From IMG/VR virus record IMGVR_UViG_2526164633_000052: DNA of 15,394 nt; one strand, written 5' to 3'. Below, piece after piece: positions 5,435 through 12,068 of the stretch (its first letter is position 1; each line of letters starts with the position of its first letter). The stretch comes from a virus (Duplodnaviria > Heunggongvirae > Uroviricota > Caudoviricetes). Under the pieces are notes generated by a model. It had not been told where the DNA came from. It made no database searches and saw nothing but the letters and a program-made list of their open reading frames with translations. Position numbers and translations under genes: made by a program.

Positions 5435-5606
5435 CGTTTTGCTCTCCTGCGTTTCTTTGCTGCACGTCGTGCAGCTGCAATACCGGTATGGCGGTGCTTT
5501 GGTGCCGGGATGATGTTGTCAGCCATCAGGACATGTGGCTTTGCAATTAGCGCAGAAGCCCAAAAACGAGTCGGGTACGGTAACAAGTCGATACATGCCA
5601 CACGCA

Positions 5607-9393: not shown

Positions 9394-9458
9394 AATAAGT
9401 CCTCACTATATAAAGATATTCAGTGATGAGATAAATAATCAGTTAATTAAGAACGATA

Positions 9459-9821
9459 TTAATGACCTGCTGCGCGGAGTTTTCCGTCAGGTTCACCGGC
9501 AAGAGTCAGTAATTGTCCCTGGTCTTCCTGCAGAATAGTCAGGCGACCACCGCGATTGACATACATCGGCGTTTCGGTGGTGTCTTCTTCGGAAATTTTC
9601 CCGCGGTTAGTTGGGCGAACATATGAGAGTTTGTGTTTGATTTTCACACGGTTCTCATCAAACGGTTCGATTTCCAGATTGAGTGAGACCTTCCCTTTGG
9701 TTTTCGTGTTCATCACACCGGAAGCGACTTCACTGAGAACTGCGCCGATTTTGGTTTCAAATACGCCGCCGTCCAGCTCCCCGATAAATGCCTGCACATC
9801 AGTACTGCGTTCGCTAGCCAT
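9459..9821 (-). CDS. YfdP-like small phage protein (120 aa); first gene of the leftward early operon
   Basis: Start set at ATG 9821 (MASERSTDVQ...) with GAGGAG RBS 7 nt upstream; the ORF-track extension to 10007 is Cys/Arg-rich and contains RNA hairpins, so it is unlikely to be coding. Confidence 0.6.
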   Translation of the reverse strand: MASERSTDVQAFIGELDGGVFETKIGAVLSEVASGVMNTKTKGKVSLNLEIEPFDENRVKIKHKLSYVRPTNRGKISEEDTTETPMYVNRGGRLTILQEDQGQLLTLAGEPDGKLRAAGH

Positions 9822-9956
9822 TTTGCTGCTCCTCATCATATCGACCCTGCAAGGTCGGTTGGTTTCTCCACAAAACAGAGAAGAACACCTGCGGTGGCAG
9901 CCGCCCGGATGGATTGGGTTATGAGCCCGTCGTCCGGTGATGCTCTTCTCTGTTTT

Positions 9957-10004
9957 GTAAAAAGAGCGGTACCAGCCGGAAGCAAGTGTACAAACTGGTA
10001 CCGC
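9957..10004 (-). terminator. Intrinsic terminator-like hairpin in the leftward (pL) leader
   Basis: Perfect 10-bp stem gcggtaccag/ctggtaccgc (9966-9975 and 9995-10004) with 19-nt loop, followed on the minus strand by TCTTTTT. Confidence 0.5.
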
Positions 10005-10435
10005 CAAAGCAGTGGCTGTTGTGGTGACCGGTGCTGATCTCCGGCTTGCGGTTATTTCAGACTCTCACGGGCGTTTAATTGCCCCGCCGAACAGCTCTTT
10101 TCCGCATTAGCTGCAATGTCTTTCGCGCATCAGCCTGCGCATTCACCACAACGCTGAGAGCACTTAGCCAGTTACGGCACCACACTTTGTCGCGGTTCCA
10201 TAAATGCCCTCATCGTTGCACCCTGGTCTCTTCCCAGGTGTCAAACCGAACCGCCACGCTGGTTAGGCGTCTTATCAGCATCATCATTGACTTGCACATT
10301 CCGGCTACCTGGTTTGTTTGCCCGAGCAAGGAGTGGATTGTCCCCTTTAACGTCCCCAGACCGCTAACGACGCATGTGCCATACGCCGTGTTACAACCAA
10401 ATTTTGTTTAATCTTGCCTGTGACATGTTTCTTTT

Positions 10436-10470
10436 AGATACATTATGTATCTCAAGGGTACATTGTCAAG
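10436..10470 (-). promoter_or_regulatory. Candidate pL promoter with overlapping operator palindrome
   Basis: On the minus strand: TTGACA (plus 10464-10469), 16-bp spacer, CATAAT (plus 10442-10447); perfect 17-bp palindrome agatacattatgtatct (10436-10452) overlaps the -10. Confidence 0.45.
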
Positions 10471-10496
10471 TATAAAAAAACCTGCCGAAGCAGGTT
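10471..10496 (-). terminator. Rho-independent terminator of the repressor gene
   Basis: Stem aacctgc/gcaggtt with cgaa loop (10479-10496); on the minus strand it is followed by a run of 7-8 T. Confidence 0.6.
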
Positions 10497-10507
10497 ATAA
10501 ATATTGA

Positions 10508-11182
10508 TTAGGCCTTTATTTTGTATCTTCTTGGTTTTCCTGAGAAAATTACTGTACCAATTATAGAGCAATTACCGTTGATCTTAATGTAAGGTTCAGG
10601 CCAGTTTGGGTTTAATGCTTTGAGGTAACGCTGTGTTCCATCTTCTATCAACCGCTTAAAGGTGGTTTCGCCTGTATCGTGCATCAATGCAATAACGTCG
10701 TCACCGTGGCAGGCAGGGACTTCAGGATCTACAAAAATCATGTCTCCCGGGCGGTACTCATCAATCATTGAATCACCAATCACCCGCAAGATATAAGTCA
10801 TTTCGCCACAGGGTACAGGGCAGGGATAAGTTTCTGCTGTGCTCAAATCAACCTCAGAATAGCCAACTTCTTTCCATGCTCCGGCCTGTACCCATGATAT
10901 GACAGGGACTAACGTTATTTGTTTGTTAGTAATTGAAACATCAGGTTTTTTTGTGATGTTTGTTGTCTGGTGTTCTTGATCAAGCCATCCGACAGGCAGG
11001 TCGAAACATTTTTCGATGTGCCGTGCCATGCTGTCACCGATATTTTTAGTAGCACCATCTCCCATAAACCTGCTGGTCTGGGTTGGCTCGCGATCAATCA
11101 TGGTGGCAAAGGAAGAATTCCCGCCAACACCATCTCTCAGTTTTCTGGCGTTAGACCGCCGGATGTCATGGACTGTTTTCAT
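10508..11182 (-). CDS. CI-like prophage repressor with C-terminal S24 (LexA-like) autopeptidase domain
   Basis: C-terminal VIGDSM...FKRL motifs (Ser/Lys dyad) typical of LexA/CI autocleavage domains; divergent from a Cro-like gene across an operator-containing intergenic region. Confidence 0.85.
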   Translation of the reverse strand: MKTVHDIRRSNARKLRDGVGGNSSFATMIDREPTQTSRFMGDGATKNIGDSMARHIEKCFDLPVGWLDQEHQTTNITKKPDVSITNKQITLVPVISWVQAGAWKEVGYSEVDLSTAETYPCPVPCGEMTYILRVIGDSMIDEYRPGDMIFVDPEVPACHGDDVIALMHDTGETTFKRLIEDGTQRYLKALNPNWPEPYIKINGNCSIIGTVIFSGKPRRYKIKA

Positions 11183-11198
11183 AACGAAATTAAAACCT

Positions 11199-11250
11199 TT
11201 GTACCGATAGGGTACAAGTATCTTGAAGGTTCATCTCAATCATGTAATAT
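11199..11250 (+). promoter_or_regulatory. OR/pR region: operator palindrome plus candidate rightward promoter
   Basis: Palindrome ttgtaccgatagggtacaa (11199-11217); TTGAAG (11223-11228), 16-bp spacer, TAATAT (11245-11250); GGAGG RBS at 11258-11262 before ATG 11273. Confidence 0.45.
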
Positions 11251-11272
11251 GTATATCGGAGGTACATATTGT

Positions 11273-11473
11273 ATGAAAGCGTATTGGGACTCTTTAACCA
11301 AAGAACAGCAGGGCGAGTTGGCCGGAAAAGTTGGCTCAACACCAGGCTACTTACGGCTGGTTTTCAATGGTTATAAAAAAGCCAGTTTTGTGCTGGCTAA
11401 AAAACTTGAGCAATGCACGTCAGGTGCAATTACGAAATATGACTTAAGACCGGATATCTATCCGAAAGATTAA
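11273..11473 (+). CDS. Cro-like (Cro/YdaS-type) small HTH regulator, 66 aa
   Basis: Position immediately right of the repressor and OR; HTH-like segment ELAGKVGSTPGYLRLVFNG; the ORF-track N-terminal extension overlaps the repressor gene and is rejected. Confidence 0.7.
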   Translation: MKAYWDSLTKEQQGELAGKVGSTPGYLRLVFNGYKKASFVLAKKLEQCTSGAITKYDLRPDIYPKD

Positions 11474-11504
11474 CAGAACACCTTCAATTTTTAACCACAG
11501 AACG

Positions 11505-12068
11505 ATGAGGCTAACCGTGGGTAAGCATCACTGGAAAGTAGAAAAACAGCCTGAGTGGTACGTGAAAGCTGTCAGAAAAACTATCGCGGCGTTGCCGGGG
11601 GGTTACGCTGAAGCTGCTGAGTGGCTGGATGTAACAGAGAACGCTTTATTCAACCGCCTTCGTGCAGATGGCGATCAGATTTTCCCGCTGGGATGGGCAA
11701 TGATTTTACAGCGCGCGGCTGGCACTCACTACATTGCGGATGCTGTCGCACAGTCTGCTGGTGGGGTGTTTGTATCGCTTCCTGAAATTGAGGAAGTAGA
11801 GAACGCCGATATAAACCAGCGCCTGCTGGAAGTCATCGAACAGATCGGGAGTTACTCAAAGCAGATTCGTTCGGCAATCGAAGATGGGGTAGTGGAGCCA
11901 CACGAGCAGACAGCAATTAATGATGAGTTGTATCTGTCAATTTCGAAGCTCCAGGAGCATGCAGCACTGGTCTACAAAATCTTTTGCGCTCCAGAAAAGA
12001 GTGACGCCCGCGAGTGTGCAGCTCCGGGCGTCGTGGCGTTTTGTGTCTGTGGAGAAACTAACGCATGA
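11505..12068 (+). CDS. CII-like / YdaT-like regulatory protein (assignment tentative)
   Basis: Second gene of the rightward operon, where CII or YdaT sits in lambdoid phages; HTH-like segment GYAEAAEWLDVTENALFNRLR; alternative GTG start at 11517 has a better RBS. Confidence 0.5.
   Translation: MRLTVGKHHWKVEKQPEWYVKAVRKTIAALPGGYAEAAEWLDVTENALFNRLRADGDQIFPLGWAMILQRAAGTHYIADAVAQSAGGVFVSLPEIEEVENADINQRLLEVIEQIGSYSKQIRSAIEDGVVEPHEQTAINDELYLSISKLQEHAALVYKIFCAPEKSDARECAAPGVVAFCVCGETNA

Follow-up and report, generated by a model that had tools for sequence, protein, structure and literature searches.

Within the window, that is, the whole 15,394-bp stretch of viral DNA analysed here, a CI-type repressor gene and a divergently oriented cro-like gene are separated by a 90-bp intergenic region carrying three 17-bp sites, whose fixed spacing is conserved in 18 distinct sequences. 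Two further sites lie at the leftward promoter. The features discussed below are as follows.

10426-10442, unstranded: OL-b, a weak or half operator (TGTTTC-TTTTA-GATACA; 3 mismatches to TGTACC-N5-GGTACA)
10436-10452, unstranded: the 17-bp palindrome (17-mer), reading as the OL-b right arm joined through TTA to the OL-a left arm
10442-10469, minus strand: pL promoter, -35 TTGACA (10464-10469), 16-bp spacer, -10 CATAAT (10442-10447); 11/12 match to consensus
10446-10462, unstranded: OL-a, a candidate operator of the strong kind (TGTATC-TCAAG-GGTACA; 1 mismatch)
10471-10496, minus strand: predicted intrinsic terminator of the repressor gene, AACCTGCTTCGGCAGGTT then a T-run, from the terminator scan
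10508-11182, minus strand: CI-type repressor, 224 aa, equivalent to e14 YmfK; N-terminal helix-turn-helix (predicted) and C-terminal S24 autopeptidase domain
11189-11217, minus strand: pRM, maintenance promoter of the repressor, -35 TTGTAC (11212-11217), 17-bp spacer, -10 TTTAAT (11189-11194), start 11182
11200-11216, unstranded: OR-a, candidate consensus operator (TGTACC-GATAG-GGTACA; 0 mismatches), spanning -18 to -34 of pRM
11217-11233, unstranded: OR-mid, candidate operator (AGTATC-TTGAA-GGTTCA; 3 mismatches), abutting OR-a and with the pR -35 in its spacer
11223-11250, plus strand: putative pR promoter, -35 TTGAAG (11223-11228), 16-bp spacer, -10 TAATAT (11245-11250)
11250-11266, unstranded: OR-b, candidate operator (TGTATA-TCGGA-GGTACA; 2 mismatches), core of inverted repeat I3
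11273-11473, plus strand: Cro-like protein, 66 aa, equivalent to e14 YmfT/CroE; YdaS-family helix-turn-helix

The repressor is identical to K-12 YmfK at 223 of its 224 residues and matches the Pfam family Peptidase_S24 (PF00717, E=1.5e-26). The Ala100-Gly101 cleavage site, Ser138 and Lys176 are all present, the Ser and Lys being nearly invariant in 39 homologues. The N-terminal 88 residues yield no Pfam match even at E<=10. In the AlphaFold model this part of the chain (pLDDT 83-91) contains helices at residues 3-18, 21-27, 32-39 and 49-58, and it is predicted to be a helix-turn-helix DNA-binding domain. The best structural match to the model is full-length lambda repressor (3BDN, E=3.6e-9), and Foldseek also matched the lambda CI C-terminal domain, UmuD and LexA. 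Matches of the Cro-like protein to the Pfam families YdaS_toxin and HTH_3 both lie under the curated cut-offs; an identical gene carries the RefSeq annotation ymfT. No binding, footprint or reporter data for a YmfK-type repressor or its Cro were found in the searchable literature.

Three promoters serve the locus. That for leftward transcription, pL, would start near 10435, and in 18 distinct homologous regions its -35 and -10 hexamers show little or no variation. The terminator at 10471-10496 is annotated at the same place in the SfV and Ayreon records; the OL sites carry no annotation in the SfV, cdtI or Ayreon records. The start of pRM at 11182 is the A of the repressor ATG, giving a leaderless mRNA, as taken from start mapping of K-12 ymfK, where transcription begins at the gene start with a leader length of 0 (Romero et al. 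2014, PMC4681348, Table S3). From the ATG through the pRM -10 hexamer the window is identical to K-12, and one spacer base before OR-a (11198) differs. In almost every homologue a TAAT core stands at an unchanging distance from the ATG, the exceptions being GAAT in locus L015 and AAAT in locus L018. The rightward promoter pR, read from sequence and probably starting near 11257, scores 8/12, which is under the threshold of the promoter scanner. In homologues its -10 changes only to other -10-like hexamers (TAGAAT, CATAAT), and its -35 keeps TTG except for TTT in L015.

The initial annotation of this DNA had placed candidate operators on either side of the repressor gene, overlapping pL and pR, and this general proposal holds: a motif shared by both regions is enriched and is conserved across genera. 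The motif is a 17-bp site, TGTA(C/T)C-N5-GGTACA. Its core, TGTA-N9-TACA, occurs three times in the 15,394 bp against 0.12 expected, and all three occurrences lie beside the repressor gene, with both regulatory regions represented. Allowing up to 2 mismatches to TGTACC-N5-GGTACA again gives three matches in the window (0.33 expected); at up to 3 mismatches the sites at 10426 and 11217 are added, making five in total. The other sequence scanned in full, the 47-kb phage cdtI, contains the same three sites at up to 2 mismatches plus one match at chance level. In both sequences the sites, that one match apart, stand only beside the repressor gene. Phage mEp460, which shares the flanks and has another repressor, has no operator site at that threshold. 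We consider WTGTAyC-N5-GGTACAW to be the operator consensus with comparative support.

The sites were compared across 18 distinct immunity regions from about 15 genera, whose CI proteins are 73-100% identical, with 21 distinct sequences available at OL; site tables were drawn up with anchored regular expressions, which every locus matched. In the 18 distinct immunity regions the operator spacing is fixed at 17, 17, 16 and 17 bp in succession. Operator arms carry 1.8-1.95 bits per column, against about 0.5 bits in the spacers of OR-a and OL-a and 0.8 bits at third codon positions of cI. On this comparison the two spacers drift like third codon positions while the 6-bp arms hardly vary. Five repressors with no more than 42-60% identity (Providencia, Rosenbergiella, Salinicola, Morganella and Salinivibrio) are likewise accompanied by the OR-a / OR-mid / OR-b layout, with OR-mid 1 bp closer to OR-a in Salinicola and Salinivibrio and a weak OR-b in Morganella and Rosenbergiella. 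A Serratia locus (66% identical) keeps OR-a and OR-b and has a divergent OR-mid. All six of these more distant repressors retain the helix motif R-E-P-T-Q-x-S-R. Beyond them, the repressors of Comamonas, Variovorax and Giesbergeria (28-37% identity) are accompanied by other palindromes, for example TTAGCC-aag-GGCTAA, and are therefore uninformative on this operator.

At the left side, OL-a occupies the spacer between the pL -35 and -10. Of its 12 arm columns 11 are invariant, of its 5 spacer columns none, and the site is retained in repressor relatives down to 43% identity. OL-b, which belongs to inverted repeat I1, covers the start region of pL and the last base of the pL -10. Its right arm is GGTACA in 19 of the 21 distinct homologous sequences. 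Its left arm is poorly conserved (0.85 bits per column), and many of the TGTTTC or TGTTGC copies of that arm share flanking sequence by descent, so that OL-b may be a half-site only. One locus (L013) has a complete extra site overlapping the OL-b position.

At the right side, the 19-bp palindrome previously noted at 11199-11217 reads as one consensus operator, OR-a. Its coordinates stand, as does its position beside pR, its end lying 5 bp before the best pR -35; it is not perfect throughout, being TTGTACC-GATAG-GGTACAA, with perfect 7-bp arms around a 5-bp spacer that lacks self-complementarity. Invariance extends to 10 of the 12 arm columns of OR-a, against 0.48 bits per column in its spacer (0.8 at cI third codon positions), and the site is retained in repressor relatives of 42-66% identity. 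Since the ymfK mRNA is leaderless, pRM lies over OR-a, with its -35 inside the right end of the 19-mer, and OR-mid is centred at -43 from the pRM start (about -32 from that of pR). Although OR-a abuts pR, it probably acts mainly on the promoter of the repressor itself, pRM, whose -35 and spacer it covers.

The right arm of OR-mid, GGTTCA, is invariant in 18/18 distinct sequences despite its position in the pR spacer. Among the six more distant relatives, four (Providencia, Salinicola, Morganella, Salinivibrio) have GGTACA or GGTACT in its place, Rosenbergiella has GGAACT and Serratia TAACTA. An alternative middle operator, TTGA-N9-TCAA at 11223-11239, was dropped in favour of 11217-11233, since only in the latter register is the GGTTCA arm invariant and replaced by GGTACA or GGTACT in those four relatives. 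Both the region where pR would start and the ribosome-binding site of cro (GGAGG, 11258-11262) lie within OR-b. Its arms read TGTAyn on the left and GGTACA on the right in every one of the 18 distinct sequences, and it always lies 16 bp after OR-mid. Part of the conservation of OR-b and OR-mid has another cause, given that they overlap the cro ribosome-binding site and the pR -35, respectively.

Taken as a whole, the region is very probably the immunity switch of a lambdoid prophage of the e14/SfV type, built on one operator type in five copies. With the free 5-bp spacer between TGTA(C/T)C and GGTACA, the two GTAC cores face the same side of the helix at a distance of 11 bp, an arrangement fit for a helix-turn-helix dimer with two-fold symmetry. 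Of the five copies, two would serve pL (OL-a strong, OL-b weak) and three the region between cI and cro. A dimer of the YmfK-type CI on OL-a and OL-b would occlude the -35, -10 and start of pL, and CI on OR-b, over the start of pR and the ribosome-binding site of cro, and on OR-mid, over the pR -35, would turn pR off. From OR-mid, centred at -43 from the leaderless cI start, CI would correspond in position to lambda CI at OR2 and may be able to activate pRM. Occupation of OR-a, which covers the -35 and spacer of pRM, would repress that promoter, whether it is excess CI or the Cro-like YmfT that binds, in the manner of lambda OR3. DNA damage would lead to RecA-stimulated self-cleavage of CI at Ala100-Gly101 and so to release of both promoters. 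What the analysis establishes is the sites themselves, how they are conserved, how they lie relative to the promoters, and the folds of the proteins, with the leaderless cI start coming from the literature; the binding partner of each site, the order in which the sites fill, cooperativity and the activation of pRM are what we infer here.

OR-a and OR-mid abut without a linker, their centres being 17 bp apart (16 bp in two distant relatives), in comparison with 23-24 bp in lambda; this may not allow both to be occupied at once. The OR-mid/OR-b and OL-a/OL-b separations, 33 and 20 bp, are roughly in helical phase, and the 17 bp between OR-a and OR-mid corresponds to about 1.6 helical turns. We think it improbable, though worth stating, that the logic is unlike that of lambda: OR-a and OR-mid would be mutually exclusive, and direct competition of two dimers, not graded affinity, would decide between activation of pRM (OR-mid) and its repression (OR-a). 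The Pfam-unassigned N-terminal domain, a distant relative of the 'noncanonical' SPC32H Rep, might then have an unusual binding mode, and the everted junction at pL could be an extra site specific to Cro.

A related proposal concerns the other palindrome, 10436-10452, described earlier as perfect and as overlapping the pL -10. Both observations are confirmed: the sequence is AGATACAT-T-ATGTATCT, a true 8+1+8 palindrome, and the -10 lies inside it. It had been suggested that the two palindromes, being different in sequence, are bound by different proteins, the 17-mer then being a separate operator for Cro/YmfT or some other factor. This we regard as quite unlikely, for both palindromes use the same half-site, TGTAyC / GGTACA. 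The 17-mer appears not to be a unit; it is best read as the right half of OL-b and the left half of OL-a, everted, with the pL -10 (CATAAT) at the centre. Symmetry about the -10 and conservation of GGTACATTATGTAyC in 18/18 close homologues are what a separate operator would lead one to expect, and the GATACA/TGTATC pair in the window, cdtI and Ayreon can be read as one compensatory change. Against this, the -10 hexamer accounts for the invariant centre ATTAT, and the 17-mer is perfect in the window because the right arm of OL-b is GATACA here. Across homologous immunity regions it is the 6-bp arms that are nearly invariant, not the symmetry of the 17-mer, which is lost (GGTACA/TGTATC) in K-12 e14 and SfV (GGGTACATTATGTATCT) and in 7-8 of the 21 distinct sequences. 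Relatives of 43-60% identity (Providencia, Rosenbergiella, Morganella) lack the 17-mer and show TTTTATTATGTACC, without the left arm, yet keep OL-a. Nor is there a repeated everted type of site, since the corresponding junction at OR (GGTACA|AGTAyC) has a spacing of 0 bp as opposed to 3 bp at OL.

A palindrome of the size of the 17-mer is, besides, not rare. Two with arms of at least 8 bp and a spacer of 0-1 were seen in the window against 0.5 expected, and at least one occurs in 40% of shuffles; one with arms of at least 7 bp and a spacer of 5 was seen against 1.2 expected. Each palindrome taken singly is thus no rarer than chance, as would be the case if both were chance features of an AT-rich promoter region with no protein-binding role. 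We give that reading very little credence: the motif common to both shows about 25-fold enrichment and is found in the two regulatory regions alone, its arms stay invariant over about 15 genera as the spacers change at the neutral rate, and it is absent where the repressor allele has been replaced (mEp460). Equally improbable is that the 19-mer, rather than being a DNA operator, works upstream of cI as a hairpin or terminator in RNA of the leftward strand. It does figure in the terminator scan list, with a 7-bp stem and a 5-nt loop, then AGGTTTTAAT. Against this, cI transcription begins at the ATG, downstream of the hairpin, the stem is invariant without compensatory change, the same motif stands at OL-a and OR-b without a T-run, and the T-run is short; a terminator at this point would also cut cI off from any promoter farther upstream.

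The alternative offered at the outset, that the true operator is the shared GGTACA-containing element, proves essentially right, both palindromes being built from the TGTAyC / GGTACA half-site. In the extended form proposed, GGTACAT(A)TTGT, the element is present at both positions (GGTACATTGTCAA, 10457-10469; GGTACATATTGTA, 11261-11273), but the TTGT extension cannot be counted as a feature common to the two: the one at OL is the -35 of pL, which reads TTGACA on the other strand, and the one at OR is not conserved, homologues having GGTACATATCATG or GGTACATATTATG. The GGTACC-bearing inverted repeats reported in the leftward leader (9969-10003) are likewise real, GCGGTACCAG (9966-9975) and CTGGTACCGC (9995-10004) being complementary at 10/10 positions, but they are not an operator of this repressor. 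The same hairpin occurs in phages with unrelated repressors (mEp460, SfII and Stx2a phages) and is therefore part of the leftward-operon module; it was rejected as a distal operator on this ground and also for the spacer of TGTACA-AACT-GGTACC, which is 4 bp and not 5 bp. A LexA (SOS) box was rejected on inspection of the five sites, none of which contains the CTGT...ACAG of CTGT-N8-ACAG. In the LexA consensus the spacing equivalent to TGTA-N9-TACA is N6. An Rfam scan of 9400-11600 at E<=1 returned a spurious miRNA match only.

The practical value of these results is modest and the understanding of phage switches is unchanged by them. They map the candidate sites of the e14 repressor, e14 being a prophage of E. 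coli K-12 and of about a quarter of complete E. coli genomes (the cassette was found in 1324 of 5426), and so show which bases to mutate in reporter designs or immunity tests. The same immunity type is present in the serotype-converting phages SfV and SfIV and in cdt- and Stx2c-carrying phages. The annotation of YmfK is still that of a putative repressor only. A co-regulated set, the 'YmfT iModulon', is described as having its highest activity in strains without Fur or under stress from hydrogen peroxide (PMC10602906); a simpler reading is that pL and pR are released once DNA damage cleaves YmfK.

The switch is an ordinary one and essentially known already. Both e14 (ymfK, ymfT/croE) and SfV (cI-cro) carry the same immunity cassette as the window, with the same repressor allele and the same operator region. 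The OR DNA of K-12 e14 is 97% identical, and the SfV GenBank record marks exactly the segment corresponding to 11199-11267, identical base for base, as a putative operator region. The e14 and SfV sequences differ from the window to the left of OL-b, where the window follows cdtI and Ayreon, and at the OL-b right arm, which is GATACA in the window. Binding sites for the e14 repressor and Cro were reportedly identified through comparison with SfV by Mehta, Casjens and Krishnaswamy in BMC Microbiol 2004 4:4.

Among better characterised systems, lambda is similar in that its cI and cro genes diverge from a region holding three 17-bp operators of two-fold symmetry, with more operators at pL, that its repressor has helix-turn-helix and S24 domains, and that its cI mRNA from pRM is leaderless. 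Of the features of a lambdoid CI-type switch, the window has the S24 domain, the predicted N-terminal helix-turn-helix, a cI-cro gap with several candidate operators, a second cluster at pL and a leaderless cI. In both, the centre of the middle operator falls at about -42/-43 relative to pRM and about -32 relative to pR, and the promoter-distal operator overlaps pRM. The window differs from lambda in the half-site sequence, in operator spacing (17 and 33 bp, compared with 23 and 24 bp), in having only two recognisable OL sites, and in placing its best consensus site (OR-a) over pRM, the reverse of lambda's weak OR3. Its repressor N-terminal domain matches no Pfam family, and its Cro is of the YdaS type rather than of the lambda Cro fold. 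The 434 operator is ACAA-N6-TTGT. Phage 434 and P22 c2 resemble the window in the short conserved outer arms and the freely varying centre that is not contacted, and in a 434-like, all-helical helix-turn-helix N-terminal domain; they differ in sequence and in site length, which is 14 bp in 434 and 18 bp in P22, compared with 17 bp here. The only solved structure with detectable N-terminal sequence similarity, and that weak (residues 1-75, E=7e-4), is Rep of Salmonella phage SPC32H (PDB 5D50), which differs in lacking an S24 domain and in being inactivated by an antirepressor.

A single motif, TGTACC-N5-GGTACA in its full form, joins the elements noted on either side of the repressor gene, in line with the alternative raised in the initial annotation that the common GGTACA-bearing element is the operator. 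Five proposed 17-bp sites lie to the left (OL) and right (OR) of the gene, as follows.

Proposed operators, promoters and genes of the immunity region (mismatches are to the full motif)
10426-10442, OL-b, TGTTTC-TTTTA-GATACA, 3 mismatches
10446-10462, OL-a, TGTATC-TCAAG-GGTACA, 1 mismatch
10469-10442, minus strand, leftward early promoter pL, TTGACA-16-CATAAT, 11/12 match
10508-11182, minus strand, CI repressor, 224 aa, C-terminal Peptidase_S24 domain
11182, minus strand, start of pRM, the repressor's own promoter, placed from the K-12 leaderless start and sequence identity; -10 TTTAAT 11189-11194, -35 TTGTAC 11212-11217
11200-11216, OR-a, TGTACC-GATAG-GGTACA, 0 mismatches
11217-11233, OR-mid, AGTATC-TTGAA-GGTTCA, 3 mismatches
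11223-11250, putative rightward early promoter pR, -35 TTGAAG 11223-11228, 16-bp spacer, -10 TAATAT 11245-11250, consensus 8/12
11250-11266, OR-b, TGTATA-TCGGA-GGTACA, 2 mismatches
11273-11473, plus strand, Cro-like, 66 aa, YdaS-like helix-turn-helix protein

In the 15,394-bp window the core TGTA-N9-TACA is found at just three positions (10446, 11200 and 11250), against 0.12 expected. With up to two mismatches allowed, the whole 47-kb phage cdtI yields the same three sites plus one in a tail gene (1.3 expected), and phage mEp460, which shares the flanking modules and has another repressor, yields none. Independently, a repeat finder returned OL-b versus OL-a as a 19-nt inverted repeat (10425-10443 / 10445-10463) and an extended palindrome around OR-b.

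Taken singly, both palindromes to which attention was first drawn are unremarkable. That at 10436-10452 is indeed perfect over 17 bp (AGATACAT-T-ATGTATCT, 8+1+8); the window holds two palindromes with arms of at least 8 and a centre of 0-1 bp where 0.5 would be expected, and at least one turns up in 40% of shuffles. The window's only other perfect 8+1+8 palindrome, GCTGCACGTCGTGCAGC, lies at 5459-5475 within the leftward early gene region. The 19-bp palindrome at 11199-11217 has perfect 7-bp arms (TTGTACC-GATAG-GGTACAA) but its 5-bp centre is not self-complementary; for arms of at least 7 and a 5-bp spacer, one is observed in the window and 1.2 expected.

Read from left to right, the 17-mer is the OL-b right arm (GATACA), TTA and the OL-a left arm (TGTATC); the two half-sites face outward, and the pL -10 hexamer (CATAAT, 10442-10447) straddles its centre. 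It is unlikely to be a unit, since its counterpart in K-12 e14 and SfV is imperfect (GGGTACATTATGTATCT), as it is in seven or eight of 21 distinct sequences, its left arm is lost (TTTTATTATGTACC) and OL-a retained in the Providencia, Rosenbergiella and Morganella relatives, and the corresponding OR junction is spaced otherwise (GGTACA directly followed by AGTAyC). On these sequence grounds, the everted palindrome is read as a by-product of two abutting predicted operators plus the -10 hexamer. The supposedly shared GGTACAT(A)TTGT string is present on both sides, but its TTGT part, which at OL is the pL -35, is not conserved at OR among homologues.

Scanning one genome per species gave 19 loci with repressors 73-100% identical, from Escherichia, Pseudocitrobacter, Klebsiella, Leclercia, Atlantibacter, Phytobacter, Enterobacter, Pantoea, Trabulsiella, Kluyvera, Limnobaculum, Rahnella, Edwardsiella, Entomohabitans and others. 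All 19 share the right-hand layout of OR-a, OR-mid, a 16-bp gap with the pR -10, and OR-b (each site 17 bp), and the left-hand layout of OL-b, TTA, OL-a and the pL -35. Over the 18 distinct sequences, the arms carry 1.95 (OR-a) and 1.92 (OL-a) bits per column, with 10/12 and 11/12 columns invariant; the corresponding spacers carry 0.48 and 0.50 bits, with 0/5 invariant in each, and cI third codon positions 0.8 bits (5/70). Fixed arms around a free centre are characteristic of dimeric helix-turn-helix operators, the role predicted for these sites. In the same 18 sequences OR-mid never departs from GGTTCA in its right arm, though this arm lies inside the pR -35/-10 spacer, where promoters do not demand any particular sequence.

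Six more distant repressors (42-66% identical) came from Serratia, Providencia, Rosenbergiella, Salinicola, Morganella and Salinivibrio; all contain R-E-P-T-Q-x-S-R, a probable recognition-helix motif. The OR-a/OR-mid/OR-b order is kept in all but Serratia. Providencia, Salinicola, Morganella and Salinivibrio have GGTACA or GGTACT as the right arm of OR-mid, and Rosenbergiella has GGAACT; Morganella and Rosenbergiella have a weak OR-b. OR-a and OR-mid abut without a linker (11200-11233), their centres being 17 bp apart, or 16 bp in Salinicola and Salinivibrio, where OR-mid lies 1 bp nearer OR-a; OR-mid to OR-b is always 33 bp. The Serratia marcescens locus (66%-identical repressor) has a divergent OR-mid (TAACTA) and retained OR-a and OR-b-like sites; it lacks cro, with a Q-type antiterminator gene in its expected place, suggesting a rearranged or remnant prophage. 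Left-hand operators differ in count and spacing by lineage (loci L013, L030/L033): L013 has an additional complete site, TGTACC-AAGTT-GGTTCG, overlapping the OL-b position, and in Providencia and Morganella a putative second OL site is 29-31 bp from OL-a, versus 20 bp. Unlike these two, Rosenbergiella showed no second OL site-like sequence.

K-12 ymfK is one of five leaderless E. coli mRNAs mapped by Romero et al. 2014 (PMC4681348), its transcription start coinciding with the gene start (leader length 0; PMC4681348, Table S3). From the ATG through the -10 hexamer the window is identical to K-12, one spacer base before OR-a differing, which fixes the position of pRM. Its -35 lies within the right-hand end of the 19-mer that holds OR-a, and a TAAT core stands at constant distance from the cI ATG in nearly all homologues (exceptions GAAT in L015, AAAT in L018). 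On this placement OR-a occupies -18 to -34 of pRM, with the centre of OR-mid at -43; in lambda, the OR2 centre is near -42 of pRM and -32 of pR. Among homologues, TAGAAT and CATAAT are the sole variants of the pR -10. The pR -35 falls within OR-mid; OR-b overlies the start of pR together with the ribosome-binding site of cro. The repressor terminator is just upstream of pL.

The GGTACC inverted repeat noted in the leftward leader is present (9966-9975 / 9995-10004) but is part of that operon's leader and not an operator of this repressor. The 9966-10004 repeat also occurs in phages with unrelated repressors (mEp460, SfII, Stx2a phages). Its leftward RNA forms a strong hairpin, then CUCUUUUU, which together look like a terminator, then a second, longer hairpin one nucleotide away; the fold of this leader (9858-10004, minus strand) has dG -73 kcal/mol and z = -6. 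The second hairpin, found in ST64B and phiNP as well, has a stem of about 25 bp that shows compensatory changes and minus-strand-only G-U pairs (ST64B, phiNP, Kp4866-6, SfV). It accompanies the leftward operon across phages of several immunity types and has no Rfam match. A role as terminator, antitermination element or processing element is possible; the phages concerned reportedly lack N.

The cassette, in which a CII/CP76-like gene and then an Ash-family gene follow the cro-like gene, is found at 97-99% DNA identity in phages cdtI, SfV, SfIV, Ayreon, 2H10 and Stx2c phages, and in 1324 of 5426 complete E. coli genomes (RefSeq names ymfK, ymfT). CI matches YmfK of the K-12 cryptic prophage e14 at 223/224 residues, the cI-cro intergenic DNA being 97% identical, and has the S24 residues Ala100-Gly101, Ser138 and Lys176. 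Searched against Pfam at E<=10, its N-terminal 90 residues (10913-11182, minus strand) give no match; PF00717 is likewise the only family matched by about 90 homologues, as distant as 40% identity, whose DNA-binding domains give no match either. Modelled by AlphaFold (mean pLDDT 78.6; N-terminal domain 83-91), the repressor has four to five N-terminal helices, residues 21-27 and 32-39 forming a helix-turn-helix. The whole model's top structural match is full-length lambda repressor (3BDN, E=3.6e-9), and the only solved relative of the N-terminal domain detectable by sequence is Rep of phage SPC32H (5D50, E=7e-4).

The SfV GenBank record annotates a putative operator region at record positions 26377-26445; this stretch, TTGTACC...GGTACAT, corresponds precisely to window 11199-11267, extending one base beyond OR-a at one end and one base beyond OR-b at the other. 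The initial observation is thus correct but ordinary, the immunity region being already known. The e14 analysis of Mehta, Casjens and Krishnaswamy in 2004 reportedly described repressor and Cro binding sites; our literature search turned up no binding study for this repressor or its Cro, and YmfK remains listed as a 'putative repressor'. What is added is a sharper definition of the sites, comparative support and a new reading of the 17-bp palindrome. The 'YmfT iModulon', treated as an undiscovered regulon (PMC10602906), is probably pL and pR derepression after SOS-induced YmfK cleavage and not an oxidative-stress YmfT regulon.

From the sites and their geometry we infer binding by CI and Cro. 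CI dimers on OL-a and OL-b would block pL, and CI on OR-b and OR-mid would block pR, the OR-mid-bound CI being placed so as to activate the leaderless pRM. Were OR-a filled, whether by surplus CI or by Cro, pRM would be turned off, and RecA-stimulated CI cleavage would derepress both early promoters. Compared with lambda, operator centres here lie 17 and 33 bp apart in OR and 20 bp apart in OL, the site closest to consensus is that over pRM, and only two OL sites are recognisable; the OR-a/OR-mid/OR-b spacing, conserved from Escherichia to Salinivibrio, is unlike that of lambda, 434 or P22.
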